A stretch of DNA of 64,000 bases from an uncultured Actinomycetes bacterium (GCA_963716525.1 OY970315.1:3996682-4060681); one strand, 5' to 3'; positions 30,064-62,026 are shown, counted from the first letter of the stretch. A program made the numbers and translations. The notes: generated by a model not told the origin, from the letters alone.

Positions 30064-30107
30064 CATGCGTCGTTTGGGACCGCTATTTGGTACCCAAACG
30101 ACGCATG
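30064..30107 (+). repeat. 44-bp hairpin repeat (REP/MITE-like), copy 1
   Basis: CATGCGTCGTTTGGG-ACCGCTATTTGGTA-CCCAAACGACGCATG. Perfect 15-bp stem. Intergenic, between convergent genes. Confidence 0.95.
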
Positions 30108-44133: not shown

Positions 44134-44607
44134 CGCTCACTCGTCGGCACCTCGCCGACGCGGGCTTCATCGCCGGCGGCGCGCTCCTCATCGCCGAGCG
44201 CGTTCCTCCACTGGGTGCGCCGCGGCAACGGCTCAACGTTGCGCGGCCACGCGCTGATCGACGCGATCGAGTCACTGTCGCACGGCCACTCGAGCGCGGC
44301 GGTCACCGCGCTCACGCTGGGCTGGTACGCGATCCCGGCGTGCGGCGCGCTGGCGTGGATCGTGGTCGGCTTCGGCGACCCGAGAGGAGGCACGGGCCGT
44401 GCCGTCGCCACCGTCACGCTGCTGGTCACCGCGGCGATCGACGCCTACTTCTGGGTGAAGCTCGGCACCCGCGCCGGCCCGGGCGTCTACCTCTCCGCGC
44501 TCGGCGCCCTCTCCACATGCGTCGTTTGGGACCGCTATTTGGTACCCAAACGACGCATGGACAATTTGGACAGGCGTTACGTGCGGGGGATCTCGCGTTC
44601 CTCGTAG
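44130..44607 (+). CDS. possible small multi-TM membrane protein. Apparent frameshift near 44190-44200, and the 3' end runs through hairpin repeat copy 2 into infB.
   Basis: The GTG at 44130 overlaps the upstream stop (GTGA) and gives VTLTRRHLADAGFIAGGALLIA... ORF 44215..44607 continues with hydrophobic segments (VTALTLGWYAIPACGALAWIVVGF, AVATVTLLVTAAIDAYFWV). Weak evidence. Confidence 0.35.
44516..44559 (+). repeat. 44-bp hairpin repeat, copy 2
   Basis: Identical to copy 1. Ends 18 nt before the infB stop region. Confidence 0.95.
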
Positions 44608-47369
44608 GTCTCGATCACGTCCCCGGGCTTCAAGTCCTGGAAGTTCTCGAGGCCGATACCGCACTCGAAGCCGTCGCGCACCTCGCGCACGTCCTCCTTG
44701 AACCGCTTGAGCGACGCGATCTGACCGTTCCAGATCACCACGCCCTCGCGCAGGAAGCGCACCTTCGAACCCCTCGTGATCACGCCGTTCTGCACGTAGC
44801 AACCGGCGATCGCGCCGACGCGCGGGATGCGGAAGATCTCGCGCACCTCGGCGTCGCCGGTGACCACTTCCTGGAACTCCGGCTTGAGCATGCCGACGAG
44901 CGCGTTGTTCACGTCTTCCAGCAGGCCGTAGATCACCTCGTAGAGCCGGACGTCGACCGACTCCTTCTCGGCGTGCTCGCGGGCCTTACGGTCGGGGCGC
45001 ACGTTGAAGCCGATCACGGTGGCATTCGACACCGCCGCGAGGTCGATGTCGCTCTCGGTGATACCGCCCACACCGCGGTGCACGAACGACAGGCGCACCT
45101 CGTCGTGCGTCTGGTCGACCTTGCGCAACGCTTCGGTGACGGCCTCGAGCGAACCCTGCACGTCGGCCTTCAGGATCAGGTTCAGCGTGGCGACCTCGCC
45201 GCGCTGCACCATCGCGAAGATGTCCTCGAGGCGGGCGCCGCCGCCGAGCGTCTCACGGTGCACCAGCCCCGCGGTGCGCCGCCGCCGGGCCCGGGCCTCG
45301 GCCACCGTGCGGGCGACCTTGTCGGACGGCGCGCTGCGCAGCTCGTCGCCGCCCACCGGCACGTCGTCGAGCCCCAGCACCTCGACCGGCTTCGACGGCC
45401 CGGCCTCGCTGACCGTGTTGCCGTTCTCGTCGAACATCGCGCGCACCCGACCCCATGCCGGGCCGGCCACGACGGTGTCACCGACACGCAGTGTGCCTTC
45501 CTCGACCAGCACCGTCGACACGGGGCCGCGGCCCTGGTCGAGGTGGGCCTCGAGCACCACCGCGCGCACGTTGCGCTCGGGGTTCGCGACGAGGAGCTGG
45601 TTGCCGTCCTCGTCGGTGAGCTCGATGTCGGCGGTGTCGATGATCGCCTCGAGCAACGCGTCGATCCCCTGCCCGGTCTTCGCGGCCACGTCGACGACGG
45701 TCGTCTCGCCGCCGTAGTCCGACGGCGTGAGGTCGTACTCGGTGAGCTGCGTGCGGACCTTCGTGGCATCGGCGTCCTCGCGGTCGACCTTGGTGACCGC
45801 GACGACGATCGGCACCTCGGCCGCCTTGGCGTGGTTGATCGCCTCGACCGTCTGCGGCATCACACCGTCGTCGGCGGCCACGACGAGCACCGCGATGTCG
45901 GTGACCTGCGCGCCGCGCTTACGCATCGCGGTGAAGGCCTCGTGGCCCGGCGTGTCGATGAACGTGAGGGCGCGGCCGTTGTGCTCGGTCTGGTAGGCGC
46001 CGATGTGCTGGGTGATGCCCCCCGCCTCGCCCGAGACGACGTTGGCGTGGCGGATCCGGTCGAGGAGCGTGGTCTTGCCGTGGTCGACGTGACCGAGCAC
46101 CGTGATGATCGGCGGGCGCGCCTGCAGCAGGCTCGGGTCCTCGTCCTCGTCGTCCTCGTCGGCCGTGAGGAGCGCCATGAGCTCGATCTCTTCCTCGCTG
46201 CCGGGCTCGACGACGAGCACTTGCGCACCGAGCGACTCGGCGATCAGCTCGATCATCTCGTCGGAGAGCGAGGCGGTGGCCGTGACCATCTCGCCGGCGT
46301 CGAACAGCAGCCGCACGAGGTCGGCCGGCCGGCGGTTCAGCCGCGGCGCGTAGTCCTGGATCGAGATGCCGCGCGGCACCACGATCTCGCCCTCGGGAAC
46401 CGGGGCGTCGTGTGGCGTGAGCGTGAGGCTCTGTTGGAGCTCGCTCTCGTCGAAGTCGCGACGCCGCTTCTTGCGCCGAGACGGCCGCCTCCCGCCGCCA
46501 CGGGGACCACCACGGCCTCCGGGACCGCCGGGACCGCCGCCGCCACCGGGACGGCCGGCGCCACCGCCGCCACCACCGAAACCGCCACGACCGGCACCGC
46601 CACCACCGCCACCACTGAAGCCGCCGGGACGGCCGGCACCGCCACCACTGAAGCCGCCGGGACGACCGCCGGTGCCCGCGCCGGTTCCGGTGCGAGCCCC
46701 GCCGGGCGCACCGCGTGCGCCGAAGTTGCGCGGACCGGGCGGCGGCGGCGTGCGCCGCCCACCCATGCCGGGCGGCGGCGGGATGATCTTGCCGCTCCCC
46801 GAACGCAGCGGCTGGCGCGGCGGCGACGGGGGCGGCGCGCCGATCGACGGGCCGCTGCGGGCCGCCGGCGCCTCACGCTCGCGGGGCGCGGGCCGCTCGA
46901 CGATCGGTGGCGGCGCGGGGATGCCGCCGGTGGAACGCACCGCGCTCTTCGACCGCTCGATGCGCTGGCTCGGCTCGGCGACGACCGGCGCGGCGGGCGC
47001 CTCCGCGGCCACCTGCTGCTCGGGCGTGCTGATCGGTGCCGCTGCCGGCGCCTCCGGAGCCGGGGCGGGGGCCGGGGCCGGGGCCGCGACCGGCGCGGGC
47101 GCGGGCGCGCCGACGGTCACCTCGGCCGCGACCCGCTGCGGGTCCGGCTCGGGAGCCGGAGCCGGGGCCGGGGCCGGTTCGGGCTCCGGCTCGCGCTTCA
47201 AGCCCTTGGCGTCGGCAAGACGGCGGACGCGGTCGGCCGAGGGCTCGTCGATGCTCGATGAATGGCTCTTCACGCCGAGCTTCAGCTCAGCGGCAAGATC
47301 CATGATGATCGGGTTCTCGACACCGAGCTCTCGCGCAAGCTCGTAGACCCTGATCTTCTTCGTTGCCAA
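44577..47369 (-). CDS. infB: translation initiation factor IF-2
   Basis: 930 aa. Low-complexity Pro/Gly/Ala N-region, G-domain ([24 protein letters not shown] context VTKVDR), and C-terminal domains. Confidence 0.95.
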
Positions 47370-47387
47370 AACCGATCGCTACCTTCG

Positions 47388-47672
47388 TCACCTCGGAGGG
47401 CCGCCGGGGCGGCCGCTCTCGTCAAACAGTCTCGCGCGCAGGTCCTCGACGTCCAGAGACGTGAAGTCGGCCCGCAGCGCCCGGGCGAGCGCACCTCGCC
47501 GGATTGCCGTGTCGAAACACTCGGATGAGCACAACCACGCGCCGCGGCCGGGAGCTTCCCGACCGACGCCGACGCGGCCGTGCGCGTCGCGTGCGCAGCG
47601 CCGCCAACCGCAACCTGGGGTCACGGTGGTACGGCAGCCGACGCACGTGCGCCGCCGCTCGCGCGCTGTCAC
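47388..47672 (-). CDS. ylxR: YlxR/RnpM (DUF448) family RNA-binding protein
   Basis: RTCVGCR...GRGAWLC signature. Lies between nusA and infB, with a 4-nt overlap with the nusA stop. Confidence 0.8.
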   Translation of the reverse strand: MTARERRRTCVGCRTTVTPGCGWRRCARDAHGRVGVGREAPGRGAWLCSSECFDTAIRRGALARALRADFTSLDVEDLRARLFDESGRPGGPPR

Positions 47673-48940
47673 CCGTCTACGTCACCACCCCCGCTCGCAC
47701 CCTCGGCCAGCGCCACGTCGTCGGCGCTCACCGCGTCGCCGACCGAGTCGCTCACCTCGAGCACGGTATCGGCCGCGCCGGTGCCGTCGTTGGCCTCCGC
47801 GACCGCTTCCACCGCGTCGCTGATGTCGTTGGCCTCGGGCGCCAGCGGCACGATGCCCGCGTAGCCGGCCTCGGCCGCCGAGATCACGTCGCCGCCCTCG
47901 GCGGGCTGCCACACGAGCTTGCCTTCGACCTCGATCCATTCGCCCTCGGCGAAGTCGCCTGACTCCTCCTCGGCGAGCTGGGTCTCGCTCTTGATGTCGA
48001 CCCGCCAGCCGGTGAGGCGGGCGGCGAGGCGGGCGTTCTGGCCCTCCTTGCCGATCGCGAGCGACAGCTGGAAGTCGGGCACGATGACCTCGGCGATGCC
48101 GGTGTCTTCGTGGATCCGAACCTCCTTCACCTTCGCGGGGGCGAGCGCCTTCATCACGAAGTCGGTGGGGCTGTCGGTGTAGGGGACGATGTCGACCTTC
48201 TCGCCGTGCAGCTCGGTGACCACCTGGCGCACACGCATGCCGCGCGCGCCGACGCACGCGCCGACCGGGTCGACGTTCGAGTCGTTCGACGCGACCGCGA
48301 TCTTCGTGCGATGACCGGGCTCGCGCGCGCACGCGCGGATCTCGATGACGCCGTCGATCAGCTCGGGCACTTCCAGCTCGAACAGGCCCTTCACGAGGCC
48401 GGGGTGGGTGCGCGACACCACGATCTGCGGGCCCTTGGCGGTGCGCCGCACCTCGACGATGTACGCCTTGCAGCGGCTGCCGTGGTCGTAGCGCTCGTTC
48501 TGCACCTGCTCGGCCTGCGGCAGCAGCGCCTCGACCCGGCCGAGGTCGAGCAGCGTGTAGCGCGAGTCGGTCTGCTGCACGATGCCCGTGACGATCTCGC
48601 CCTCGCGGCCCGCGAACTCCTCGTACTTGCGGTCGCGCTCCACCTCACGGATGCGCTGGGTGATCACCTGCTTGGCAGTCTGCGCGGCGATGCGACCGAA
48701 ATCCTTCGGCGTGTCGTCCCACTCGCGGGTGATCGTGCCTTCCTCGTCGAGCTCGAGCGCGATCACCCGGATCTCGCCGGAGTCGGGGTCGATCTCGACC
48801 TCGGCCTCCTCGGCCGCGTTCGGCAGCCGCTTGTAGGCGGTGACGAGCGCGTTCGCGAGCGCGAGCAAGAGGTCTTCCTCGGAGATGCCCCGTTCCACGG
48901 CGAGCGCGCGCAGGGCCTCCATCATGTCGGGGTTTGTCAT
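47669..48940 (-). CDS. nusA: transcription termination/antitermination factor NusA
   Basis: N-domain, S1 ([21 protein letters not shown]) and two KH domains ([29 protein letters not shown]). Acidic C-terminal extension. Confidence 0.95.
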
Positions 48941-49497
48941 GACCGCGTCGTCTCCTTCACGCGCGCGTTCGCGCCCGGCTTGGTGCGGCCGGGCCGCGGT
49001 GCAGGCCCCCAGTCGAAGACGGTGCGCGCGGCGATCACGTCGTCGTACGCGATGACGAGCTCGGTGCCGTGCTCGTCGAGGATCGTGATCGTGTGTTGCG
49101 TGCGCTCGGTGCGGTCGGTGCGGTCGGTGTGGTGGGTGCCGGCGAGCCGGCCGCGGACGCGGGTGGCGGCGCCCGACTCGTCGCGGTACTTCACGCTGAC
49201 GTCGACGCCGACGGCCGCGCGGAAATGCTCGGGTCGGGACAGCTTGCGCTCGAGGCCGGGGCTCGACACCTCCAGCTGGAACGCGCCGGTGACGGCCTCC
49301 TCGACCGCGTGCTCGACCGCATGCGTCGCGTCGGACAGCACCTCCAGATCGATGCCCGTGCCGTCGGGCCGCTGGACGCTGATCCGCACCACGCGGGCCC
49401 GGCCGCTGCCGGTGAGCTCCACGTCGTACACCTCGAGCCCGAGGGGTGCCACGAGCGGCGCGGCGGCGGCGCGCAGGGCGTCCAGATCGACAGTCAT
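48937..49497 (-). CDS. rimP: ribosome maturation factor RimP
   Basis: LGLEVYDVEL...LEVSSPGLERKLSRPEHF. Start at MTVDLDAL. 4-nt overlap with nusA. Confidence 0.85.
   Translation of the reverse strand: MTVDLDALRAAAAPLVAPLGLEVYDVELTGSGRARVVRISVQRPDGTGIDLEVLSDATHAVEHAVEEAVTGAFQLEVSSPGLERKLSRPEHFRAAVGVDVSVKYRDESGAATRVRGRLAGTHHTDRTDRTERTQHTITILDEHGTELVIAYDDVIAARTVFDWGPAPRPGRTKPGANARVKETTRS
49104..49139. repeat. 4 x 9-bp tandem repeat (ggtcggtgc type) inside rimP
   Basis: Read directly from the sequence. Encodes HHTDRTDRTERT in frame. Confidence 0.85.
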
Positions 49498-49597
49498 CGC
49501 GCGCACCTCCTCGTGGGCTCGGACTCGGGTTCTTGGCTTGTGGTGCCGGCGGCGGCCGGCGTCCTGGCTCGGGTTCGCGGCTGCCGGCGCAGCGCCG

Positions 49598-49626
49598 ACA
49601 ACAAAGAACGTGGGCACAAGGCCCAC
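49598..49626 (-). terminator. candidate intrinsic terminator downstream of the sulfotransferase gene
   Basis: Minus strand reads GTGGGC-CTTGT-GCCCAC followed by GTTCTTTGTTGT, a U-rich tail that is unusual in this GC-rich DNA. Lies 85 nt after the stop at 49711 and upstream of rimP. Confidence 0.5.
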
Positions 49627-49710
49627 GTCCGCCAGCGGTACGACCCGCAACCAGGGACTCGAACGGGCTCTAAGAGTACCAGAGGAGCGCCGAAATTGCC
49701 CGCGCCGTGG

Positions 49711-50739
49711 CTACTTGCCGAGGCGCCGTTTCACCATCGTGAACGGGTTGCCGATCTGGCGGGCGTTCATCACACCGGCCACACCCAGCTTCACCGGCAA
49801 CGCGCCGTACCAGCCGAGCTTGCCGAGCAACGCGTCGCCGGGCGCGGCGGGCGCGTAGCCGTGGCGCTGCATGGCGTCGCCCGCGACCGCCTCGCACATC
49901 GCGATCTCGGCGTTCGACAGCCCACCCCGGGTTCGCCACGCTTCGGCCACGTCGCCGCGCAGACCGCGCGCACCGGGTTCGTCGGACGCGAGCGACGAGC
50001 TCTCCTGGGGCACATCGAGCATCTCGGGCGTGAACTCGACGCCGCAGTGCGCGGCCACCGCCGCCACCTGGCGCTCGGGCTCGCCGAGGAGGTCCTCGAA
50101 CCGGACCGTGAGGAGCCGGCGGTCGTCGACCGCGTCGGCCGCGTCGACTGCGCCCTTCCAGATGCGGGCGGTCACGAGCGGGTGGTAGTTCGACCAGCTG
50201 CGCACGACCTCCGAGCGGGGAAGCGCCGACTCGCCGAGCGAGCGGCGGCGCCACTTGTTCTTCTGCGAGAGCAGAACGGCACGGGGGTCGCGCACCATGT
50301 TGACGATGCGGGCGTCGGGGAACGCACGCAGGATGTCGCGGATGTAGAACACGTTCCGTGGTGTCTGGTCGCAGGCGATCTCGCCGCCCCGCCGGCGGGC
50401 GTCGACCGCGAGGAACTCGCCGTAGACCGCGAGCGGCGACACGCGGCCGCTGCCGTTGACGACGCCCACGATCTGCTCGGCTTCGTTGCGGAAGTCGCTC
50501 GCCGTGCCCTGCCGGTAGAAGAGGCCCTTGTGCTGGGTGTGCACGAGGCGCGCCGCGAGCTCGACGGCATCGTCGTGCGAGAGCGTGTCGGGATCGCTGC
50601 CCGGCGTGTAGAGGCGCTCGAAGAAGTGCACCTCGGCGAGTGCGCGTACCGGGCCGCTGCGGCTGACGACGCGGCTCATCAGCGTGGTGCCGCTACGGCT
50701 CGCGCCGACGACGAAGATCGGCCCGATCACGTGGGTCAC
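49711..50739 (-). CDS. sulfotransferase family protein
   Basis: 5'-PSB-like loop FVVGASRSGTTLMS and 3'-PB-like IVNMVRDPRAVLLS. The GTG start is at 50739 or 50730. Confidence 0.8.
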   Translation of the reverse strand: MTHVIGPIFVVGASRSGTTLMSRVVSRSGPVRALAEVHFFERLYTPGSDPDTLSHDDAVELAARLVHTQHKGLFYRQGTASDFRNEAEQIVGVVNGSGRVSPLAVYGEFLAVDARRRGGEIACDQTPRNVFYIRDILRAFPDARIVNMVRDPRAVLLSQKNKWRRRSLGESALPRSEVVRSWSNYHPLVTARIWKGAVDAADAVDDRRLLTVRFEDLLGEPERQVAAVAAHCGVEFTPEMLDVPQESSSLASDEPGARGLRGDVAEAWRTRGGLSNAEIAMCEAVAGDAMQRHGYAPAAPGDALLGKLGWYGALPVKLGVAGVMNARQIGNPFTMVKRRLGK

Positions 50740-50780
50740 GCTATGTGTGATCGGCAGCCTCCCGACCCGCTTCACCCCCA

Positions 50781-50824
50781 CATGCGTCGTTTGGGTACCA
50801 AATAGCGGTCCCAAACGACGCATG
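50781..50824 (-). repeat. 44-bp hairpin repeat, copy 3 (loop in opposite orientation)
   Basis: CATGCGTCGTTTGGG-TACCAAATAGCGGT-CCCAAACGACGCATG. Intergenic, between the ligase stop and the sulfotransferase start. Confidence 0.95.
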
Positions 50825-50833
50825 GTGCGCCGA

Positions 50834-50916
50834 GGGGGGCGCCGCCGCCGGGGGGCGCCGCCGCAGGGGTGTGGCGCCGCAGGGGTGTGGCGCAGCGGCG
50901 GGGCGGGGCGGCGGGG
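50834..50916. repeat. G-rich tandem duplications adjoining hairpin copy 3
   Basis: ggggggcgccgccgc(c) x2, then aggggtgtggcgc(cgc) x2, then gcggggcggggcggcgggg. Ends at the ligase stop codon. Confidence 0.85.
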
Positions 50917-50917
50917 C

Positions 50918-51991
50918 TCAGGCGCGGAACAGGGCCCGCAGCTCGGCCGGGGGGACCACCTCGAGCTGGTCATAGCGGCACGACGACGGGTCGCGGTCGT
51001 CACGCCAGCGCTTGAAGTGTGCGTTGTGCCGGAACCGACCGTTCGTCAGACCTTGATAGTCGACCTCGACGACCCGCTCCACCCGCAGCGGCTCCCACGA
51101 GAGGTCCTTCGTCGCGTTCCAGCGCGACACGTTGCCGGGCGCGCGCCCCGGCGTGACGTGCTCCGCGGCGAGCTCCACCCACTGCCGCCAGGGGTGATCC
51201 TCGAGCGCGTGCTCGCGCAGCGGCGCGACGTCACCGAGCAGCTGCTCACGCACCTTGGCGCTCATGCCCGACGCCACCCCGACGTGTTGCAGCACTCCCG
51301 AGCCGTCGTAGAGGCCGAGCAGGAGCGACCCGACGCCGTTGCCGTCCTTGTGCATGCGAAAGCCCGCGACCGCGCAGTCGCAGGTGCGCTCGTGCTTGAT
51401 CTTGACGAGCGTGCGCTGCCCCGGCGCGTACGGATCGCGCACCGGCTTGGCGATCACACCGTCGAAACCCGCGCCCTCGAAGCTGTCGAACCAGGCGCGC
51501 GCGGTGACGGGGTCGCGCGTTGCCGGCGTGAGCAGCAGCGGCGGGCGCGGCCCCTCCAGCAGCTGCTCGAGGCGGGCGCGGCGTTCCTCCATCGCGGTCG
51601 GCAGCAGCGACTCGTCACCCACGGCCAGCAGGTCGAAGGCCACGTAGCACGCGGGGATCTCCACGCTCAGCTTGCGGACTCGCGATTCCGCGGGATGCTG
51701 GCGCAGCTGCAGCACGTCGAAGTCGAGTCCGCCGTGCACGCCGACCACCACGAGCTCCCCGTCGAGCACGCAGCGATCGGGCAGCTGTGAGAGCAGCGGG
51801 TCGCGCAGCTCGGGGAAGTAGCGCAGCAACGGCTTCTGGTTCCGGCTCTGCAGATCGAGCTCGTCGCCGTCGCGGAACACCACGCACCGGAAGCCGTCCC
51901 ACTTCGGCTCGAAGATGAAGCCGTCGCCGTCGGGCACCTCGCGAGTGAGCTTCGCGAGCATCGGCTCGAACGGCGGGCGCACCGGGAGCAT
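50918..51991 (-). CDS. ATP-dependent DNA ligase (minimal LigC-type: adenylation + OB domains)
   Basis: Motif I EPKWDGFR (KxDG), plus [21 protein letters not shown] and LVKIKHERT motifs. Start at [15 protein letters not shown]. Confidence 0.85.
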
Positions 51992-52968
51992 GGCGGCGCT
52001 CCTACACGCCGCTGATCGCGGCAATGCAGGCGGCGACCAACCCGTCGAGCGCGAGCTCGTCGCGCACGCCGCTGGCGCGGTCCTTGCGCTCGGCCACACC
52101 CCGCGCCAGACCCTTCGCGCCGATCGTGAGCTGCAACGGCACGCCCACGAGGTCGGCGTCGGCGAACTTCACACCCGGGCTCGCGTCGCGGTCGTCGTAA
52201 AGCACCTCTATGCCCGCCTCCACGAGGCCTGCGTACACGCGGTCGGCGGCAGCACGCACGTCGTGGGCCGTCGCGCCCTTGCCGGCCAGCGCCACGAGAT
52301 GCACGCGGTACGGCGCGACGGCGGCCGGCCAGGCGATGCCGACGTCGTCGTGATGCTGCTCCACGATCGAGGCGACGATGCGTGACACGCCGATGCCGTA
52401 GGTGCCCATCACCATCGGATGGCTCTCGCCGTGCTCGTCGGTGTAGTGCGCGCCGAGCGCTTTCGAGTACTTCGTGCCGATCTGGAACACCTGGCCGACC
52501 TCGATGCCGCGGTCGACCGATAGCTCGGATCCGCAGCTCGGGCACGCGTCGCCGGAGCGGATCACCACGAGGTCGGCCCACACGTCGACGTCGAAGTCGC
52601 GGCCGAGCCACGCCCCGCGCACGTGGTGGTCGACCTCGTTCGCGCCGGTCACCCATTCGTGGGGCACGCCCACGGCCGGGTCGGCCACCACGAGGCGCAC
52701 CGACGGGTGGTTCGGCCCGATGTAGCCCTTCGGCAGCTCGGGGTGCGCGGCGAAGTCGTCGTCGGTGTAGAGGCGGACCTTGCGTGGGGCGACGGCACGG
52801 GCGAGCGCGACCTCGTTGACCTCGCGGTCGCCGGGCACGAGCGCGAGGCCGAGCTCGCCGTCGGCGTCGAAGGCGATGCACTTCAGCGTGCGCGACTCCT
52901 CCACCGCGAGGTGCCGCGCCACCGCGGTGATGCCCGGCATCCCCGGCGTGTGCACCCTCTCCACCGCG

Positions 52969-53012
52969 CATGCGTCGTTTGGGACCGCTATTTGGTACCC
53001 AAACGACGCATG
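52969..53012 (+). repeat. 44-bp hairpin repeat, copy 4, located inside the proS reading frame
   Basis: Identical core, flanked by additional palindromic gcg/cgc. Translated in the proS frame as [15 protein letters not shown], with no stop. Confidence 0.95.
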
Positions 53013-53013
53013 C

Positions 53014-53049
53014 GCGGCCGGGGCGGCCGGGGCGGCCGGGGCGGCGCGG
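53014..53049. repeat. 4 x 9-bp tandem repeat (gcggccggg) adjoining hairpin copy 4 inside proS
   Basis: Read directly from the sequence. Encodes [11 protein letters not shown] in the proS frame. Confidence 0.9.
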
Positions 53050-53798
53050 GTGGCGACCTCGACGTTGGCGGCGTAGTCGCAGCTCGGGCACCACACGAAG
53101 TCGTCCTCGCCCACCTCGGCCACCGCCATGAACTCGTGGTTCACGTCGCCACCGATCTCGCCGGCCTCCCCCTCGACGGCGCGGAACACCAAACCGCAAC
53201 GTTCGAACACCCGCGAGTACCGCGTCGTACATGCGCTGGTAGGTGACGAGCAGGCTCTCGTGGTCGGGATGGAAGCTGTACGCGTCCTTCATCAGGAACT
53301 CGCGGCCGCGCAGCAGGCCGAAACGGGGCCGCACCTCGTCGCGGTACTTCCAGTTGATCTGGTACAGGTTCACCGGCAGGTCGCGGTAGCTCGTGTACTC
53401 GTTCGCGACCGTCGCGGTGATCACCTCCTCGGCCGTCGGCACGAGCGCGAAGCCGGTCTCCTTGCGGTCCTCGAACCGGAACATCGTGGGGCCGTACGCC
53501 TTGTCGCGCCCGCTGCGTTGCCAGAGCTCGAGCGGCTGCGGGATCGGCAGGATCACCTCCTGGGCGCCTACCGCGTCCATCTCCTCCCGGACGATGCCCT
53601 CCACCTTGCGCAACACACGCCGGCCGAGCGGCAGCCACGAGTAGATCCCCGCCGCCACCTTGCGGATGTAGCCGGCCCGCACGAGCAGGCGGTGGCTGTC
53701 GACGTCGGCGTCGGCCGGGTCGTCGCGCAGCGTGCGCAGGAACAGCTCGGACATCCGCATAGGGCCCGGAGGCTAGACACGGGCGGGCCCCCTGAAAG

Positions 53799-53815
53799 CT
53801 GACTCATACAGTCAG
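53799..53815. promoter_or_regulatory. inverted repeat CTGACT-catac-AGTCAG in the AT-richer proS/sir divergent promoter region (candidate operator)
   Basis: Perfect 6-bp arms, with a third CTGAC half-site at 53824..53828. The local sequence ctgaaagctgactcatacagtcagaaaaattcctgacc is far below the window GC. Confidence 0.25.
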
Positions 53816-54041
53816 AAAAATTCCTGACCAAAGAGGTGGCATTTCGGGCCCGACCGGAGTACCGTGCCCCGCATGAGCCACGTGCTGCGTGTGACCGGGG
53901 CACCGTCGATCGCGATGGGCCGCACACCGCACGAGGTCCGCGACGAGCTCTGTCGCCCTGAAATCGCTTCCCGCTGAGCCGTAACGGCTCGGCGGCACTG
54001 CTCCCTTTCTTTCCGTACCGACCTCGATCGAGGAGGCGCGC

Positions 54042-55831
54042 GTGGCCATCGACGTGCGTGAGCTACAGACCCGAAGCCTGCCCCCCGACATCGCCGAGGA
54101 GCTCGACCGCTACGAGCAGACCGTCGCCGAGTACCTCGCGGGCGACGTCGACGAGGACGTCTTTCGCGTCTTCCGCCTGAACAACGGCATCTACGGCCAG
54201 CGCCAGGGCGGCCACAACCAGATGGTCCGGGTCAAGGTGCCGTACGGCAAGGTCACGCCCGAACAGCTCGAGGTGCTCGGCTTCGTCTCCGAGCACTTCA
54301 GCCGCGGTTGGGGCCACCTCACCACGCGCCAGAACGTGCAGTTCCACTTCGTCGAGCTCGAGAAGACGCCTGAAGTGGTGCGCCTGCTCGCGAGCTGCGG
54401 TCTCACCACCCGCGAGGCGTGCGGCGACACGGTGCGCAACGTCGTCGGCTGCCATCTCGCCGGCGCGTGCCCGCACGAGGTGCTCGACATCTCGCCGTGG
54501 GCCGAGGCGGCGGCGCGCACGTTGTTGCGCCACCCGTACGCGCAGCGGTTACCCCGCAAGTTCAAGATCAACTTCTCGGGCTGCGCCACCGACTGCGGCC
54601 AGGCGATGTTCAACGACGTCGGCGTGATCGCGGTGAACCGCACGCACGACGACGGCACCGTCGAAGCCGGGTTCAAGGTCGTGATCGCCGGCGGGCTCGG
54701 CGCCAACCCGCACCCGGCGCTCGCGCTCGAGGAGTTCACGAGCCGAGACGACCTGATGCCCACGATCGAGGCGTGCCTGCGCACGTTCGACCACTACGGC
54801 AACCGCGACAACAAGCTGCGCGCCCGCATGAAGTGGCTCGTCGACACGATGGGCATCGACGAGCTCCGTGAGCGCATCTTCAAGGAGCGCAAGTTCCTGC
54901 GCGGCTCGGTCAGCTGGCCCGGCGGGGTGCCGCAGACGGTGCGCGAGCGCGGCGATGCGCCCGCCGGCACCGGCGCCGGTCCGGTCAGCGGCACACCGGG
55001 CGGCGAGACGGTGGTGCGCCTGCCGCGCGCGACCCCTACGAGCGCTGGGCCGAAGCCAACGTGGTGCGCGGTGTGGCGAACGGCACGGTGAGCGCGTACG
55101 CGTCATGCGAGCTCGGCGACATCACCACCGAGCAGTTCGACGGGCTCGCCGAGATCCAGCGCGACTTCAACCTCGATGTGCGCATCACGAGTCGCCAGAA
55201 CTTCGCGTTCCGCGACCTCACCGAAGGCGACCTGCGCCGCGCTCTACGAACGCCTCGACGCAATCGGCATGGCCCGTCCGGGCGCCGAGCTCGCCGCGAC
55301 GTGGTGGCCTGCCCCGGCGCCGACACGTGCAACCTCGCGGTCACCCAGTCGCGTGGGCTCGCCTCGGCGATCGGCGAGGCGCTCGAGGACGCGGGTCTGT
55401 CCGACGTCGGCGGCGTGCGCGTCAACATCAGCGGCTGCACGAACAGCTGCGGCCAGCACCACATCTCCGACATCGGCTTCTTCGGCCTGGAACGGCGAGC
55501 GCACGGCCAGGCCGCGCCCGGCTACCAGATGCTGCTCGGCGGCCATCTCGGCGACGAGCAGGTGGAGTTCGGCGACAAGGCCACCAAGCTCCCGGCCAGG
55601 AACGCGCCGGAGGCCGTCGTGCGCGTCGTCCGGCGCTTCGCCGACGAGCGCAACGCAGGTGAGGCGTTCAGTGGTTGGCTGGAGCGCAGCGGCGGCGCGG
55701 CCGGAGTGGGTTCGGCCCTCCGCGAGCTCGACGAGTTCCCCGAACCCGAGGTGAGCCCCGAGTTCTATGTCGACTACGGCGAGACCGGCCCCTACGTCAA
55801 GGAGATCGGCGAGAGCGAGTGCGCGACGTGA
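54042..55831 (+). pseudogene. sir: assimilatory sulfite reductase (ferredoxin-type, NirA/SirA family), three 1-nt frameshifts
   Basis: N half is ORF 54042..55091 (NNGIYGQRQ..., TTRQNVQFH, TTREACGDTVRNV). It continues as DPYERWAEANVVRGV... in frame 55061. A short excursion into frame 55176 follows (ALYERLDAIGMARPGAELA). It then returns to DVVACPGADTCNLAVTQSRGL...SGCTNSCGQHHISDIGF (siroheme/4Fe-4S Cys motifs). Confidence 0.85.
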
Positions 55832-56553
55832 TGGCCGCGTCGAGCACGCTCACCTCCGCCACCGGTCTGGCCGTCCCCCGGTCCGACGTCGATCTCGAGG
55901 AGCTCGCACGCGTGTCCGCGGAGCTCGAGCACAAGCCGGCCGCCGCCGCGATCCGCTGGGCGTGGGAACGCTACGGCACCGGCATCTTCGTGGCCGCGAG
56001 CTTCCAGGACTCCGTGCTCGTCGACGTGGCGGTGCGCGAGGTGCCCGAGATCGAAGTGGTGTTCCTCGACACGCAGTTCCATTTCGCCGAGACGCTCTGG
56101 TACGTGGAACGGGTCCGCGATCGCTACGACCTCAACCTCACCGTCATGCAGCCGCTCGCGGAGCCCGACGATCTCTGGCAGGTCGATCAGAACGAGTGCT
56201 GCGCGATCCGCAAGGTCGAGCCGCTCGCCCGCGCGCTCGAAGGCCGCGAGGCGTGGATCACGGGGCTGCGCCGCAGCGAGGCGCCCACCCGCGCCAAGTC
56301 GCCGATCGTGCACCTCGACCTCGGCCGCGGCGTGGTGAAGGTGAACCCGCTCGCGTCGTGGACCGATCTGGACGTTGAGGGCTACGTCGCCGACCACGAG
56401 CTGGACGAGCATCCGTTGAAGCGCCGGGGCTACCCGTCGATCGGCTGCTGGCCGTGCACGCGGCCGGTGCGGGACGGCGAGGACGCGCGTGCAGGGCGCT
56501 GGTCGGGCACCGGCAAGACCGAATGTGGCTTGCACGGCTGGCCCGAACCCTGA
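55828..56553 (+). CDS. cysH: adenylyl-sulfate (APS) reductase, thioredoxin-dependent, Fe-S type CysH
   Basis: PAPS-reductase fold (ASFQDSVLVD, ITGLRRSE) plus the Fe-S cysteine pairs ECCAIRKVEPL and SIGCWPCTRPV that mark APS-specific enzymes. The start overlaps the sir stop. Confidence 0.9.
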   Translation: MMAASSTLTSATGLAVPRSDVDLEELARVSAELEHKPAAAAIRWAWERYGTGIFVAASFQDSVLVDVAVREVPEIEVVFLDTQFHFAETLWYVERVRDRYDLNLTVMQPLAEPDDLWQVDQNECCAIRKVEPLARALEGREAWITGLRRSEAPTRAKSPIVHLDLGRGVVKVNPLASWTDLDVEGYVADHELDEHPLKRRGYPSIGCWPCTRPVRDGEDARAGRWSGTGKTECGLHGWPEP

Positions 56554-57452
56554 CCTAACGCGGGCCGCGCAGCACGGTGAGACCGACGCGCGCGCCGAGT
56601 CGCGCGCGCTTCAGCAACGAGAGGTCCGGTCCGCGCACGGCCATCCGCCGCGAACTGGGCCGCACCGCGCCGGTCACCGCGTTGCGACAGGCGGCGCACG
56701 AGCGCGGAGCACGCGACCGCATCACCATGCGCACCCTGGGCTTCCAGTGCCGGCAGGTGACGCTCGAGCACGTCGAGGTGCGCCTCCCACTGGGCGACGG
56801 AGTTCGAGCTGAGGCTGTCGGACCGCAGGCGGTACCAACCGAGCGCGTCCTCGACGAAGCCGACGCGCTCGCCACCGAGCATGAACCGGATCCAGAGGTC
56901 GTAGTCCTCGGCGCGGCGTTGCGATTCGTCGAACGCGCCGTAGCGGTCGAAGAGCACGCGCCTGATCACCGCGCCCACGAAGATGAAGTTGCGCCGGGCG
57001 ATCTCGTCGAGTTGGTGGTCGGGTGCGATCGTGCCGTCGGCATAGTCGTAGTACCGGCGATCGGTGCGGACACCGTGCTCGAGCAGGTAGGTGTCCGACG
57101 TCACCCAGCCGAGCGACGGTTCGTCGAGCAGCTTGGCGATACAACGATCGAGCCGGTCGGGCATCCACACGTCGTCGCCGTCGAGCAGCGCCACGAGTGC
57201 GCCGCGCGACGCGGCCAGACCGCTGTTGCGCGCACCGGCGAGACCGCGGTTGGCCTGCTCCACGTAGACGACCTCCGGTTCGGACAGATACGGAGCGACC
57301 GCGTCGTGCGTGCCGTCAGTGGAGCCGTCGTTCACGATGACGACCTCGAGCGGCCGGTACGTCTGCGCCAGTGCCGATTCGACCGCCTCACCGATGTACC
57401 GCTCGACGTTGAAGGCCGGAATCAGTACCGAGCACAGCGGTCGGTCAGCCAT
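56430..57452 (-). CDS. family 2 glycosyltransferase (3' end uncertain)
   Basis: SVLIPAFNVERYIGEAVESALAQTYRPLEVVIVNDGSTDGT and DGDD (DxD). As read, the ORF overlaps cysH by 124 nt. An alternative frame ends at 56555 (...LLKRARLGARVGLTVLRGPR), which would require one more indel near 56620-56640. Confidence 0.75.
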   Translation of the reverse strand: MADRPLCSVLIPAFNVERYIGEAVESALAQTYRPLEVVIVNDGSTDGTHDAVAPYLSEPEVVYVEQANRGLAGARNSGLAASRGALVALLDGDDVWMPDRLDRCIAKLLDEPSLGWVTSDTYLLEHGVRTDRRYYDYADGTIAPDHQLDEIARRNFIFVGAVIRRVLFDRYGAFDESQRRAEDYDLWIRFMLGGERVGFVEDALGWYRLRSDSLSSNSVAQWEAHLDVLERHLPALEAQGAHGDAVACSALVRRLSQRGDRRGAAQFAADGRARTGPLVAEARATRRARRSHRAARPALGQGSGQPCKPHSVLPVPDQRPARASSPSRTGRVHGQQPIDG

Positions 57453-57651
57453 GGCGCACTCGTGTGACAGCGAAGCCCGCGTGGGCAGCCATGGGGACCA
57501 TTTCCTCTGACATGAACCGGAACGAGATCGCGCTGCTCGCGGGCCGCTGCGTTGCGCCGCACGATACCGGCCGGCCCGCGGCGCAGCGGTCACCGCGAGG
57601 CACGGATCGCGCCGTGCGAGCCCGGCGATCGAGTGTCGCGTTCAGCGCGGG

Positions 57652-57932
57652 CGCCGGGCTGCCGATCAGAAGGTGCCGCGCACCGCTCGGGTGTCCGCTT
57701 CGCGGCAATCTGAACGGGACCATCGAACTACCATGACCGCGCTCTCCAGCCTCCCCCCACGCCCCCACGCCCGCACGAGCCCGGCCGCCGGGGGTCGCGT
57801 GCGACGCGGCCGCCGGGCTGCCGATCAGAAGGCGCCACGCACCGGCCGGTGTCCGCTTCGCGGCAATCTGAACGGGACCATCGAACTACCATGACCGCGC
57901 TCTCCAGCCTTCCCCCACGCCCCCACGAGCCC
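57652..57932 (+). repeat. tandem duplication (period about 158 bp, about 125 bp conserved) of the cysD leader, start codon and first 14 codons
   Basis: The two copies are cgccgggctgccgatcagaagg...gtccgcttcgcggcaatctgaacgggaccatcgaactaccATGaccgcgctctccagcct.cccccacgcccccacg. The ATGs are at 57733 and 57891, with only a few substitutions and one indel between copies. Confidence 0.9.
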
Positions 57933-58862
57933 GCTGACCGGGTGCAGAGGACCGCCGTGCACACCCAGCTGTCGCATCTCCAGGCGCTCGAGGCCGAGTC
58001 CGTCCACATCATGCGCGAGGTGGCGGCCGAGTTCGAGCGGCCCGTGCTGCTCTTCTCCGGCGGCAAGGACTCCGCGGTGATGCTGCACCTCGCGTGGAAG
58101 GCGTTCAAGCCGGCACGCATCCCGTTCCCGGTGATGCACGTCGACACCGGCCACAACTTCGACGAGGTGATCAGCTACCGCGACGAGGTCATCGGCACGT
58201 ACGGCGTGCGGCTCGTCGTGGCGAGCGTGCAGGAGTCGATCGACAAGGGTCGCGTCGTCGAGGAGACCGGACCGCGGGCGAGCCGCAACCGGCTGCAGAC
58301 CACCACGCTGCTCGACGCCATCACCGAGCACCAGTTCGACTCGGTGTTCGGCGGTGGCCGGCGCGACGAGGAGAAGGCCCGCGCCAAGGAGCGGGTGTTC
58401 AGCTTCCGCGACGAGTTCGGCCAGTGGGACCCGAAGACGCAGCGGCCCGAGCTGTGGTCGCTCTACAACGGCCGGCACCGCAAGGGTGAGCACATCCGCG
58501 TGTTCCCCATCTCCAACTGGACCGAGATGGACATCTGGCAGTACATCGCGTCGGAGCCGGTGCCGATCCCGTCGATCTACTTCGCGCACCGCCGGCGCGT
58601 GTTCCGCCGCGACGGCATGTGGCTCTCGGAGTCGCCGATCATCCCGATGCTGCCCGACGAAGAGGTCGTGGAGATGACGGTGCGCTACCGCACCGTCGGC
58701 GACCTCACGTGCACGGGTGCAGTCGAGTCACCTGCTGCCACGGCCGAGGAGATCATCGTCGAGGTCGCGGCGTCGCGGATCACCGAACGCGGCGCCACCC
58801 GCGCCGACGACAAGTTCACCGAAGCGGCAATGGAAGACCGCAAGAAGGAGGGCTACTTCTGA
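57891..58862 (+). CDS. cysD: sulfate adenylyltransferase subunit 2
   Basis: QLSHLQALEAESVHIMREVAAEFERPVLLFSGGKDSAVMLHLA...HVDTGHNF...RDEEKARAKERVFSFRD...EDRKKEGYF. In-frame GTG at 57849 is an alternative start. Confidence 0.9.
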   Translation: MTALSSLPPRPHEPADRVQRTAVHTQLSHLQALEAESVHIMREVAAEFERPVLLFSGGKDSAVMLHLAWKAFKPARIPFPVMHVDTGHNFDEVISYRDEVIGTYGVRLVVASVQESIDKGRVVEETGPRASRNRLQTTTLLDAITEHQFDSVFGGGRRDEEKARAKERVFSFRDEFGQWDPKTQRPELWSLYNGRHRKGEHIRVFPISNWTEMDIWQYIASEPVPIPSIYFAHRRRVFRRDGMWLSESPIIPMLPDEEVVEMTVRYRTVGDLTCTGAVESPAATAEEIIVEVAASRITERGATRADDKFTEAAMEDRKKEGYF

Positions 58863-58939
58863 TGCGCCAGCATCACGCCACCCCGCCTTCGAGGACTGAC
58901 CGTCAAGCTGCAGACCGCAAGAAGGAGGGGTACTTCTAG
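58835..58939 (+). repeat. 28-bp direct repeat of the cysD 3' end (agaccgcaagaaggaggg[c/g]tacttctRR), copies at 58835..58862 and 58912..58939
   Basis: Read directly from the sequence. The copies are 77 bp apart. The first ends in the cysD TGA, and the second ends in TAG 2 nt before the cysN ATG. Confidence 0.9.
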
Positions 58940-58941
58940 CC

Positions 58942-60195
58942 ATGGAGATGCTCCGCTTCGCCACCGCCGGCTCCGTCGACGACGGTAAGAGCACGCTGAT
59001 CGGGCGCCTCTTGCTCGAGACCAAGGCGATCTTCGAGGACCAGCTCGAGAGCGTCGAGCGGTCGTCGCGCGACCGCGGGTTCGACTACACGAACCTCGCG
59101 CTGCTCACCGACGGCCTGCGCGCCGAGCGGGAACAGGGCATCACGATCGATGTCGCCTACCGCTACTTCGCCACGCCGCGCCGCAAGTTCATCATCGCCG
59201 ACACCCCCGGCCACATCCAGTACACGCGCAACATGGTGACGGGCGCGTCGACGGCCGACCTCGCGCTCGTGCTCGTGGACGCGCGCAACGGCGTCGTCGA
59301 GCAGAGCCGCCGCCACGCGGTGATCGCGTCGCTGCTGCAGGTGAAGCACCTCGTGCTGTGCGTGAACAAGCTCGATCTCGTCGACTACGACGAGCGTCGC
59401 TTCGAGTCGATCTGCGCCGAGTTCACCGACTTCGCGGCCAAGCTCGACATCGACGACCTCACGTTCATCCCTGTCTCCGCGCTGCTCGGCGACAACGTCA
59501 CCAGCCACTCCGACAACACCCCGTGGTACGACGGCCCCACGTTGCTGCACCACCTCGAGCACGTGTACATCGCCTCCGACCGCAACCTCATCGACCCGCG
59601 GTTCCCGGTGCAGCTCGTGATCCGGCCGATGAGCCACGATCATCACGACTACCGCGGCTACGCGGGCGTGGTTGCCGGCGGCATCTTCCGGCCCGGCGAC
59701 GAGGTCGTGGTACTGCCGTCGGGCTTCACCACCACCATCGAGGCGATCGACCGGTTCGGCGAGCCGATCGACGAGGCGTTCCCGCCCAGCGCGGTCACGA
59801 TCCGCCTGCGCGACCAGATCGACATCAGCCGGGGCGACATGCTGTGCCGCACGAACAACCAGCCGGCCGTCACCCAGGACGTCCAAGCCCAGATCTGCTG
59901 GTTCAGCCCCGAGCGCACGCTCGAGCGCGACCGCGTGTACGCGATCAAGCACACCACGCGGTGGGCCCGGGCGAAGGTGGTCGACCTGCTCTACCGGCTC
60001 GATGTCAACACGCTCTCGCGCGACGAGTCGTGCCCGCAGCTGCGGCTGAACGACATCGGCCGCGTGAAGCTGCGCACCACCCAGCCGCTGTTCGTCGACG
60101 AGTACCGGCGCAACCAGAGCACCGGCTCGTTCATCCTCGTCGACGAGGGCACGAACGAAACGGTGGCCGCCGGCATGATCATCGGGTCTGACTGA
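58942..60195 (+). CDS. cysN: sulfate adenylyltransferase subunit 1 (GTPase CysN, no fused APS-kinase domain)
   Basis: LRFATAGSVDDGKSTLIGRLL, DTPGHIQY and NKLD GTPase motifs. 417 aa, ending right after the EF-Tu-like beta-barrel domains. Confidence 0.9.
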   Translation: MEMLRFATAGSVDDGKSTLIGRLLLETKAIFEDQLESVERSSRDRGFDYTNLALLTDGLRAEREQGITIDVAYRYFATPRRKFIIADTPGHIQYTRNMVTGASTADLALVLVDARNGVVEQSRRHAVIASLLQVKHLVLCVNKLDLVDYDERRFESICAEFTDFAAKLDIDDLTFIPVSALLGDNVTSHSDNTPWYDGPTLLHHLEHVYIASDRNLIDPRFPVQLVIRPMSHDHHDYRGYAGVVAGGIFRPGDEVVVLPSGFTTTIEAIDRFGEPIDEAFPPSAVTIRLRDQIDISRGDMLCRTNNQPAVTQDVQAQICWFSPERTLERDRVYAIKHTTRWARAKVVDLLYRLDVNTLSRDESCPQLRLNDIGRVKLRTTQPLFVDEYRRNQSTGSFILVDEGTNETVAAGMIIGSD

Positions 60196-60270
60196 CCGCT
60201 CGCGCGAGGAGCCTCGTGGCGCGTCGCTCTACAACGCTGTAGGACGCCCTTCGATAACCTCCTGCACCCT

Positions 60271-60999
60271 ATGAGCCTGGCGACACGGGGCATCAAGCTC
60301 CTCAACGAGGTCGAACGGCGCCGGCGCACGCGCCGGCCGGTGGAGGACGCGTGGAAGAGCGCGCTCGCCGGCGAGGTGCGCCACTGGGAGCGCGCGGTCA
60401 AGACCTGGAAGCAGCTCACCGACCGCTTCGATCCCGACCAACCGCTCTACGCGCCGCTCGCCGAGCTCGCCACCGCGATGGCGCCGGCCGGCTCGACGAT
60501 CAAGGTGATCGACGTGGGCGCGGGGCCCATCACGTGCGTCGGCAAGAAGCTTTCCGGCTACACCGTCGAGAACCGCGCGGTCGACGTGCTCGGCGACGAG
60601 TACCGGGGCGTGCTCGAACGGGCGGAGCTGGCACCGCCGGTGTGGACCGAGCAGTGCAACTCCGAGAAGCTGTCGGAGAAGTTCGGTGAGAACGTGTTCG
60701 ACCTCGCCTACGCCCGCAACACGCTCGACCACAGTTACGACCCGCTGCTCGCCATCCGCGAGATGGTGCGGATCGTGAAGCCCGGCGGCGCGGTGATGCT
60801 GGAGCACGCACCCGACGAGGCCGAGGAGGAGAAGTACCTCGGTCTGCACCAGTGGAACCTGCGCTGCGAGCAGGGGCGGTTCGTGGTGTGGCGGCGCGAT
60901 ACCCGCATCGACGTGGGCAACGAGCTCGCCGCCATGGCGACGGTCGAGCTCGCCCGCGACGCGCCCCCCCTCCACCGGGTCATCCTCCGCAAGCACTGA
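60271..60999 (+). CDS. class I SAM-dependent methyltransferase
   Basis: Motif I VIDVGAGPITCVG and VKPGGAVMLEH. No closer assignment is possible. Confidence 0.7.
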   Translation: MSLATRGIKLLNEVERRRRTRRPVEDAWKSALAGEVRHWERAVKTWKQLTDRFDPDQPLYAPLAELATAMAPAGSTIKVIDVGAGPITCVGKKLSGYTVENRAVDVLGDEYRGVLERAELAPPVWTEQCNSEKLSEKFGENVFDLAYARNTLDHSYDPLLAIREMVRIVKPGGAVMLEHAPDEAEEEKYLGLHQWNLRCEQGRFVVWRRDTRIDVGNELAAMATVELARDAPPLHRVILRKH

Positions 61000-61000
61000 C

Positions 61001-61044
61001 CATGCGTCGTTTGGGTACCAAATAGCGGTCCCAAACGACGCATG
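61001..61044 (-). repeat. 44-bp hairpin repeat, copy 5
   Basis: Starts 2 nt after the methyltransferase stop. Same loop orientation as copies 3 and 6. Confidence 0.95.
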
Positions 61045-61075
61045 CGCGGGGGTGGCTAGGCCGCGCTATGTCCTG

Positions 61076-62026
61076 CTAGGCCGCTTCGCGGCGCAAGGTC
61101 GCGAGGAGCGCGAGCAGCTCGGGGCATCCGCGGGCGATCTCCTCGTCGCCCACGGCGGAGATGTCGATGCCGTGGAGCGTCCGTATGCGCAGGGCGCGCG
61201 CGATGTCGTACTGATGCTGGCGGACACCGCCGTGGGTCGAGAACGGGTTCACCTCGACGGCACGGTGAAACTCGGACAGGTAGAAGTCGAGGCGCACCGT
61301 CCAGGTGGGACTCAGGCTGAGCTCGTACTGCGGCACGATCTCGTAGCCGGCCGCGAGGAGTGCGCGACCGACGAGGATCTCGGGCGGACTCTCCGTCTGG
61401 CTCAGCGCGGGCTGGAACTGGTCGAGCGCGCGCCGCGCGGCCCGGGCACCGATCCGGAACTCTGGCGCGAGGCGCTCGTAGGTGCGCTCGAGCTGCTCGA
61501 GATCGGTGAGACCGCGCCGGACCGCGTCCTGCATCGCCAACACGAGCACTTCGAGCTCGATGTGGCCGAGGGCGACGGAGGTGCCCAGGTCGATGAGCGT
61601 CCGCGCGACCCGAGTGCGCGGGATGCCGTCGATCTCGACGACGTCGCGCTCCGACAGATGGAACGATTCGTGCACGCACAGCTCGAAGCCGGCGACATCG
61701 CTGCCGCGGGCGCGCCGCCATCGCGGACTGGCGACCTCCACTACGGACGCTCGCCCCGGCAGCCGCCACAGCCACGCCGACGAGCGATGCGACACACTCG
61801 ACAGCCGCCGACCGGCGCTCGCGGCGAACAAGGCACCGGGAAGCTCGATCGGCGCCCCACCAACGGCATAGACGCCCTGCCTGAGCACCCGTAAGCGGTG
61901 CTGGTCGACGAGCCTCTTGATGCTGTTCGGCGACAGCGCCAGCTCGTGCAGCAGCTGGTCCCGGGTGACGACGCCGTGCTGGCACGCAGCCATGGCAGAC
62001 AACGCTCGCTCTCGTGCAACATTCAT
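61076..62026 (-). CDS. AbiEi_4-like N-terminal domain / DUF559 (Vsr-like endonuclease fold) C-terminal domain protein
   Basis: N-terminus ...CQHGVVTRDQLLHELALSPNSIKRLVDQHRLRVLRQGVYAVGG is typical of AbiEi-family antitoxin-like wHTH proteins. The C-terminus has VRLDFYL...AVEVN..., which is PD-(D/E)xK-like. Start at MNVARERAL. Confidence 0.65.
   Translation of the reverse strand: MNVARERALSAMAACQHGVVTRDQLLHELALSPNSIKRLVDQHRLRVLRQGVYAVGGAPIELPGALFAASAGRRLSSVSHRSSAWLWRLPGRASVVEVASPRWRRARGSDVAGFELCVHESFHLSERDVVEIDGIPRTRVARTLIDLGTSVALGHIELEVLVLAMQDAVRRGLTDLEQLERTYERLAPEFRIGARAARRALDQFQPALSQTESPPEILVGRALLAAGYEIVPQYELSLSPTWTVRLDFYLSEFHRAVEVNPFSTHGGVRQHQYDIARALRIRTLHGIDISAVGDEEIARGCPELLALLATLRREAA

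Follow-up and report, generated by a model that had tools for sequence, protein, structure and literature searches.

A palindromic repeat carried in frame by the prolyl-tRNA synthetase gene of an uncultured actinomycete and its relatives

How does a short palindromic repeat come to lie, translated, inside the gene of an aminoacyl-tRNA synthetase, and how long has it been there? Within the window (the whole stretch of 64,000 nucleotides analysed here, from an uncultured Actinomycetes bacterium), the initial annotation recognized copy 4 of a 44-bp element, together with an adjoining 4 x 9-bp repeat, in proS, the gene for prolyl-tRNA synthetase (ProRS), and regarded it as an insertion that had colonized this genome and lengthened a linker of the protein. 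The sequence and the repeats are as it described them, and its interpretation is right in kind, but wrong in the age of the insertion and in the cause of the linker length. The features of the locus are the following.

52002..53760, minus strand: proS, encoding a bacterial-type ProRS with an INS editing domain; frame broken by one extra base at 53220-53221
52969..53012, minus strand: 44-nt palindromic element with 15-nt arms and a 14-nt centre, within proS and translated in frame
53014..53050, minus strand: array of four 9-nt units (GCGGCCGGG on the plus strand; 4.0 by TRF), encoding 12 residues and abutting the proS element
53220..53221, minus strand: GG on the coding strand versus a single G in three orthologues; a +1 frameshift in proS

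The palindrome in proS and its family

The core of the element is CATGCGTCGTTTGGG-N14-CCCAAACGACGCATG at 52969-53012, and the perfect inverted repeat extends to 20-nt arms (52964-52983 and 52998-53017), which gives 54 nt in total, or 18 codons. As RNA, the element is predicted to fold with -50.7 kcal/mol (z = -9 versus shuffles). The 44-mer is read on the minus strand as 14 residues (+ C), in a frame that is stop-free across the element within a 402-codon ORF (53210..52002). Because the 44-mer is free of stops in five of its six frames, this stop-free passage through proS is unremarkable alone. An Rfam search over the entire window gave no match, the hairpin family included, and a tRNA scan found nothing.

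As had been proposed, the hairpin is part of a dispersed repeat family, with six full copies in the window. Its 16-nt arm has 14 matches at up to three mismatches in the 64-kb window versus 1.09 expected, a number that none of 100 shuffles reached, and 12 of these 14 matches make up the six complete copies, the proS copy being the fourth. All six are identical over the core, while the centre is found in both orientations. The other five copies, and a second array, are listed here.

30064..30107, unstranded: copy 1, apparently intergenic, with long minus-strand ORFs on either side
44516..44559, plus strand: copy 2, between two convergent genes, that of a small membrane protein and infB
50781..50824, unstranded: copy 3, between the DNA ligase gene and the sulfotransferase gene
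61001..61044, unstranded: copy 5, on the 3' side of an AbiEi/Vsr-like gene, beginning 2 nt past the methyltransferase stop codon
62065..62108, unstranded: copy 6, 38 nt upstream of the AbiEi/Vsr-like gene start codon
62105..62150, unstranded: array of about four 11-nt units (GCGCGGGTTAG), directly beside copy 6; the sulfotransferase stop codon falls in the last of them

The small membrane-protein ORF (44215-44607) runs through copy 2 and ~15 codons beyond, overlapping the 3' end of infB. In the related genome JBBREP, the orthologue is ended by a TAG within the centre of its own copy, so that the element supplies different C-terminal tails in the two genomes.

The family occurs within a clade of Acidimicrobiia. 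Its units consist of conserved arms of 14-15 nt, (N)ATGCGTCGTTTGRS, around a variable centre of 13-16 nt; the conserved arms read ATGCGTCGTTTGAC ... GTCAAACGACGCAT, and many centres are self-complementary. The position immediately outside ATGCG changes in step in the two arms and differs between genomes, being T/A in DASXZO, G/C in JBBREP, and C/G in the window. An arm-pattern scan of species-representative genomes found, among the matches listed, many copies each in the Acidimicrobiia MAGs DASXZO01 (the genome of ProRS P0001) and JBBREP01 (that of P0003), and, again among the matches listed, a few isolated ones in unrelated phyla that are probably due to chance. Copies sit directly after stop codons or between genes, nearly all of them outside high-GC3 coding frames; the ~54 copies examined include one internal gene insertion (that in proS and its orthologues) and one C-terminal tail. 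Apparent in-frame copies in long ORFs of L021 and L049 were rejected, since upstream GC3 is low there and the true starts lie after the element. One JBBREP copy (L060, 21641-21678) falls inside the 5' end of a gene called on the minus strand with 663 codons (19749-21740), which may reflect either a miscalled gene start or another translated copy. We also rejected the possibility that the hairpins are intrinsic (Rho-independent) terminators, because no copy has a T tail and the 3' flanks are G-rich; terminator calling over 44000-63000 called none of the copies.

Tandem arrays of three or more units, spanning 27 nt or more and lying directly against a copy, were found at 4 of 54 copies, compared with 0.09% of random positions in the same DNA. 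Besides those in the window, they are found in L016 (3090-3120, 7-nt unit) and L046 (6547-6606, 13-nt unit). A MITE derived from an insertion sequence would have terminal inverted repeats and a target-site duplication of fixed length; here there are inverted arms, and no direct repeat of constant length surrounds the six window copies. The arrays at some copies are one-sided, with units of 7, 9, 11, or 13 nt, and because the unit length varies they are not fixed target duplications. They were probably expanded by slippage beside a stable hairpin. Beside copy 5 (61050-61085), GCTAGGCCGC is present twice, 9 nt apart, and the second occurrence holds the stop codon of the AbiEi/Vsr-like gene.

The ProRS linker and the same site in related genomes

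The nearest relatives of the window ProRS are proline--tRNA ligases of uncultured Acidimicrobiia, with identity up to about 83-84%; homologues with E <= 1e-30 number 8000. In the frame-corrected protein, Pfam places the class II core (PF00587) at residues 94-469, tRNA_edit (PF04073) at 272-385, and the HGTP anticodon-binding domain (PF03129) at 494-577. YAANVE occupies residues 229-234, and the array and hairpin encode residues 239-269. The insert lies in the junction between the catalytic core and the INS editing domain, and its initial placement between YAANVE and the INS domain agrees with a tRNA_edit match that begins at residue 272. According to an AF2 model of the 402-residue ORF, most of the insert is coil, and the blocks over its central part have a pLDDT of 52-62 with adjoining blocks at >= 95. 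The model suggests a loose linker that ought to accommodate extra residues at little cost. Orthologues vary freely in both the length and the sequence of this coil linker, which would be why the insertion is tolerated. The hairpin-free proS of L061 (P0004) has its own 15-nt tandem repeat in the linker, GACCGAGTTCCACCC / GACCGACTTCCACCC, which encodes DRVPP/DRLPP, so that the linker lengthens by repeats in other lineages too.

The linker is indeed longer than usual, as was noted at first, with 31 residues in the window versus a median of 21 (range 16-50) in 119 orthologues. The hairpin alone was rejected as the cause, because the linker of the other hairpin-bearing relatives has 23-26 residues, which is near the norm. 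From YAANVE to HTPG, the segment measures 135 nt in the window versus 111 nt in L001 and L003, and this excess of 24 nt (8 aa) over the nearest relatives is attributed to the 9-nt array, which is absent there, and not to the hairpin. When the segment is aligned with orthologues for lineage specificity, only the array proves specific, whereas the hairpin is shared with relatives.

We compared the DNA of ProRS orthologues at loci that are syntenic (sulfite reductase, proS, ATP-dependent DNA ligase, sulfotransferase, and rimP-nusA-infB). Three further lineages have a diverged hairpin at the same linker position: L001/L002 (P0002), where it reads GTGCGTCGTCTGAC-ACTCAAATAGCGCA-GTCAAACGACGCAC, and L003-L005 (P0001) and L062 (P0005), where it reads GGGCGTCGTAGAGCGTCG-AATAG-CGACGCTTCACGACGCCC with the centre AATGG in L062. 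On the coding strand, the centre AATAGCG is common to the window, L001/L002, and L003-L005, and becomes AATGGCG in L062. In all bearers the hairpin has the same orientation, its 3' half is in the same frame, and its distance from the conserved V-x-(K/R)-V-HTPG segment is nearly equal. The next outgroups, L060 (P0003, 78-79% identical) and L061 (P0004), have no such hairpin in proS. Judging from ProRS identity (81-84% among hairpin bearers versus 76-79% to P0003), the bearers are a clade of at least four species-level lineages with P0003 outside. Because the bearers form a clade and the outgroups are without the hairpin, one insertion on the stem of this clade is the economical reading, and its presence at the same spot in relatives marks it as an old, tolerated insertion, common to the clade and not a colonization of the genome under study as was first thought.

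The stem has been maintained during this divergence. In a hand-set alignment of the proS copies (only four, equivalent to three independent lineages) with one N inserted in the loop, 90% of the cells of the 15-pair helix are paired, seven pairs being invariant and six changed on both sides, whereas slid-partner controls gave 30-48%. Folding is also more stable than in shuffles for the hairpins of the orthologues (z = -3.7 to -5.3), but not for the L060 linker (z = -1.4). A partial peptide similarity, QIA..NDA.AV, is shared among orthologues; those with the similar peptide (P0001, P0002, and P0005) also carry the diverged hairpin, and the similarity stems from the shared DNA, so that no homologous peptide was seen apart from the repeat.

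Two other sites allow the same comparison. In the gap between ligase and sulfotransferase, the window, L003, and L060 each have a copy and L001 has a decayed one; in the infB-h143 gap, the window and L060 have one. The window copies at proS and at these two sites are 100% identical to each other and 59-75% identical to their positional counterparts at the three sites, which points to concerted evolution or in-place replacement. The proS copy is the same as the five other window copies while its counterparts in relatives are 25-41% different, which argues for gene conversion or in-place replacement. Simple descent or random re-insertion cannot yield this concerted pattern; by comparison of the copies, it would need gene conversion or a replacement targeted at existing copies. 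The copy at the ligase site of L003 is 91% identical to the majority type of its own genome. Conversion is not uniform, since the DASXZO proS copy has not been homogenized: it is far from the majority type of that genome, and shares its 13-nt centre with another DASXZO copy (L010).

We consider it likely that the proS palindrome is an old in-frame copy of a REP-like element that has been tolerated in a loose linker, with its hairpin kept by exchange with paralogues, and that has been lengthened here by the array. One copy would have entered the proS linker before at least four species-level lineages diverged from their common ancestor, and would have been inherited at this site since, with selection holding the reading frame open. 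Pairing of the stem may have been kept by compensatory substitutions, but copying from other members of the family is the likelier cause, and gene conversion or in-place replacement would homogenize the copies within a genome. The 9-bp array would be a secondary, lineage-specific expansion, probably caused by slippage beside the hairpin. The AbiEi/Vsr-like protein described below is a candidate for the factor that recognizes, spreads, and homogenizes the family.

Recurrent independent insertion, with the proS linker as a hot spot at which each lineage gained a copy of its own genome's type, would explain why the proS copies are strongly divergent (59-75% identity), why the window copy is identical to the consensus of its own genome, and why genome-specific types are seen at other sites too. 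We regard it as unlikely, however, because all four proS copies share one orientation, one frame of the 3' half, and a nearly equal distance from V-x-(K/R)-V-HTPG, because their bearers form one clade, and because the DASXZO proS copy does not match the majority type of its own genome.

The reading frame of the assembled gene

The claim of read-through in an essential gene holds locally, no stop interrupting the element, but the gene as assembled is frameshifted upstream of it: the N-terminal 180 codons (53760..53221) and the other 402 codons (53210..52002) are in different frames, and the break falls ~170 nt upstream of the 9-bp array. The divergently transcribed neighbour of proS, a sulfite reductase gene (54042-55831), is split into ORFs at 54042-55091 and 55061-55831, and differs from two orthologues by indels of +1 near 55237 and of -1 near 55293, the latter within a run of C. 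The other neighbouring genes of the window for which a match was found, thirteen in number, show no such break, each aligning in one frame throughout. Because the sulfite reductase gene is frameshifted as well, an assembly error is likely in proS, and the extra G is, by comparison with its orthologues, probably such an error; we read the two lesions as those of an error-prone assembly rather than of two dead genes.

Were proS a pseudogene here, with a second proS doing the work, a one-base frameshift that splits the gene at 53220-53221 would be no surprise. This is decidedly unlikely, though, because the lesion is single with no stop codon elsewhere, the codon bias is normal (GC3 of 0.93, like that of nearby housekeeping genes), the identity to intact orthologues is 83-84%, and the hairpin-bearing orthologues are intact; the sulfite reductase gene beside it has indels too, including one at a C run, as an error-prone assembly would produce. 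It is very improbable that the hairpin is native to proS mRNA as a functional structure, for example a signal for processing or pausing, rather than an element that moves or is copied: compensatory changes do keep the stem within a coding region, but the same 44-mer recurs in the window in five other, unrelated contexts, with dozens of copies in related genomes, the outgroup proS genes are without the hairpin, and there is no Rfam match. That the assembler misplaced the repeat into proS is hardly credible. The assembly does appear to have indel errors, and at most 9% of the 31-mers of 52500-53800 are present in any one public run; yet three related lineages, assembled independently, have a hairpin at this site, and in the window the frame is uninterrupted across the element and the sequence on either side aligns with the orthologues.

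A hairpin-flanked AbiEi/Vsr-like gene and comparison with known systems

Two of the window copies bracket a single gene.

61076..62026, minus strand: 316-codon gene for a protein with an AbiEi-type winged helix and a Vsr/DUF559-type endonuclease domain, flanked by copies 5 and 6

Copy 5 is located ~30 nt after the stop of this gene, and the hairpin-gene-hairpin unit of 1.15 kb (61001-62108) stands between the methyltransferase and sulfotransferase genes. The orthologous methyltransferase and sulfotransferase genes of JBBREP (L060) are 7 nt apart with no unit between them, so that the unit must have been inserted or deleted as a block. Close homologues (57-67% identical) are likewise flanked in JBBREP (L034), DASXZO (L009 and L055), and DASXET (L063); thus, all five AbiEi/Vsr-like genes with DNA have hairpins on both sides, in four different genomic contexts. 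The two DASXZO paralogues differ in hairpin subtype, that at L009 being the majority type of the genome and that at L055 a minority type. Neighbours of the flanked genes are methyltransferase, sulfotransferase, GNAT-like (by eye), DUF179, and Fpg genes; an AbiEii nucleotidyltransferase gene was found beside none of them. Another close homologue, P0124, follows the same methyltransferase gene on the opposite strand relative to it, and this orientation hints that the hairpin-gene-hairpin unit can invert.

Pfam identified an AbiEi_4 winged-helix domain in the flanked protein, and DUF559 and REase_MTES_1575 in more distant homologues, with no match for the C-terminal part of the window protein alone. 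The family profile matches the DUF559 structure 3hrl (E = 5e-6) and the homing endonuclease I-Bth0305I (3r3p, E = 2e-4). The structural model has a pLDDT of 92, and in Foldseek its first 200 residues match AbiEi and Rv2827c and its C-terminus PvuRts1I, AbaSI, I-Bth0305I, and Vsr. The protein keeps E205, D236, E247, H254, and D263, while the near-invariant D249 (ELDG motif) is N or S in the subclade; lacking this aspartate, it may not cleave DNA.

Two distant AbiEi_4 + DUF559 homologues on long contigs have no paired flanking hairpins, so that the association is limited to one small subclade of five genes, and we rejected paired hairpins as a general trait of this architecture. A Y1 (RAYT) transposase gene was found next to none of the sampled copies, a part of each genome having been sampled. 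In a clustering of ORFs beside copies (~390 kb), no other gene family recurred in more than two loci; this is a weak screen, because its GC3 cut-off of 0.80 also removed most AbiEi/Vsr-like genes. A metagenome scan with a narrow alignment of the flanked protein and its homologues matched 389 stretches, none of which was confirmed by tblastn, and a metagenome search with a DNA pattern of hairpin arm and gene leader gave 120 chance matches, none with a hairpin or the gene.

By inference, the flanked gene is the leading candidate to encode the family's cognate enzyme. It is possible, but rather doubtful, that the hairpins are REP-like non-autonomous elements whose cognate enzyme is a domesticated AbiEi-winged-helix + Vsr/EDxHD (DUF559-type) endonuclease and not a RAYT; the protein would then recognize the arms and nick or cut them, driving the spread and homogenization of the family, the proS copy included. 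AbiEi binds inverted repeats in its own promoter, and we know of no cleavage activity for the AbiEi_4 + DUF559 architecture. The N-terminal ~200 residues of the flanked protein resemble, in sequence and fold, the AbiEi antitoxins of type IV toxin-antitoxin systems (6y8q) and Rv2827c (1zel); unlike in type IV AbiE, there is no adjacent AbiEii nucleotidyltransferase gene, and a nuclease domain is fused instead. In profile, fold, and E/D/E/H/D residues, its C-terminal part resembles the EDxHD/Vsr-like I-Bth0305I (3r3p) and DUF559 (3hrl), but unlike EDxHD homing endonucleases its gene is not in an intron or intein, and the second acidic residue of E-D is N or S.

In-frame palindromic repeats in housekeeping genes are textbook knowledge for Rickettsia, where the Rickettsia palindromic elements (RPE) measure ~100-150 nt. 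These elements were reportedly described by Ogata et al. in 2000. For housekeeping genes of Actinomycetota, we found no such in-frame palindromic repeats described in the literature. In-frame MITEs are known from Coxiella burnetii (PMC5896051). Like RPE and these MITEs, the present family contains short palindromes in frame in protein genes, housekeeping genes included, at tolerant sites (here the proS linker and the tail of ORF 44215-44607), and its copies are inherited by related species. Unlike RPE, its members are 44 nt long and of unrelated sequence, so that they do not belong to that sequence family, its host is a free-living high-G+C actinomycetote (Acidimicrobiia), and coding copies are exceptional.

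The family also resembles the REP and REPIN elements with their RAYT transposases (PMC3116915, PMC3686654, PMC5581495) in being made of short G+C-rich palindromes with many copies, mostly extragenic, with genome-specific types and persistence across species. RAYTs were found to be flanked by cognate REPs, and orthologous RAYTs by different REP classes (Nunvar et al., PMC3686654); here too, a single gene is flanked by copies of cognate type, and paralogues have their own subtype. Unlike REPs, none of the alignments has a GTAG/GTGG (GT[AG]G) head, the arms starting with (C/T/G)ATGCG or GGGCG, and unlike REPINs, the copies form no inverted doublets but are singletons more than 1 kb apart. The sole pairs are those around the AbiEi/Vsr-like genes, ~1.03-1.06 kb apart, and unlike in RAYT systems the flanked gene is not a Y1 HUH transposase but of the AbiEi_4 + Vsr/DUF559 type. 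Our literature search found nothing on the present hairpin family, on DUF559 with palindromic repeats, or on AbiEi_4 + DUF559 with repeats.

In the proS of several species, an insertion into an aminoacyl-tRNA synthetase has survived with its stem still paired, and this case is a natural test of the structure or extra peptide that is tolerated at the ProRS core-INS junction. The AbiEi/Vsr-like gene bracketed by hairpins is the more interesting, though unproven, lead. If its protein acts on the hairpins, REP-like systems would have arisen more than once with different enzymes, this one being a second, independent kind, and the very common actinobacterial AbiEi_4 + DUF559 architecture would have its first function.

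A second, unrelated palindrome family is also present in the window, at 22563-22608 and 41653-41696, with 21-22-nt arms, (G)TTGTCCCATCGGGAGCCAA(C), and a 2-nt spacer; these two copies compare with 0.04 matches expected by chance. A similarly built palindrome with a 2-nt spacer, TCGTGGTCCCACAAACAGTCGAC, is located just after infB in L003 (16331-16378).
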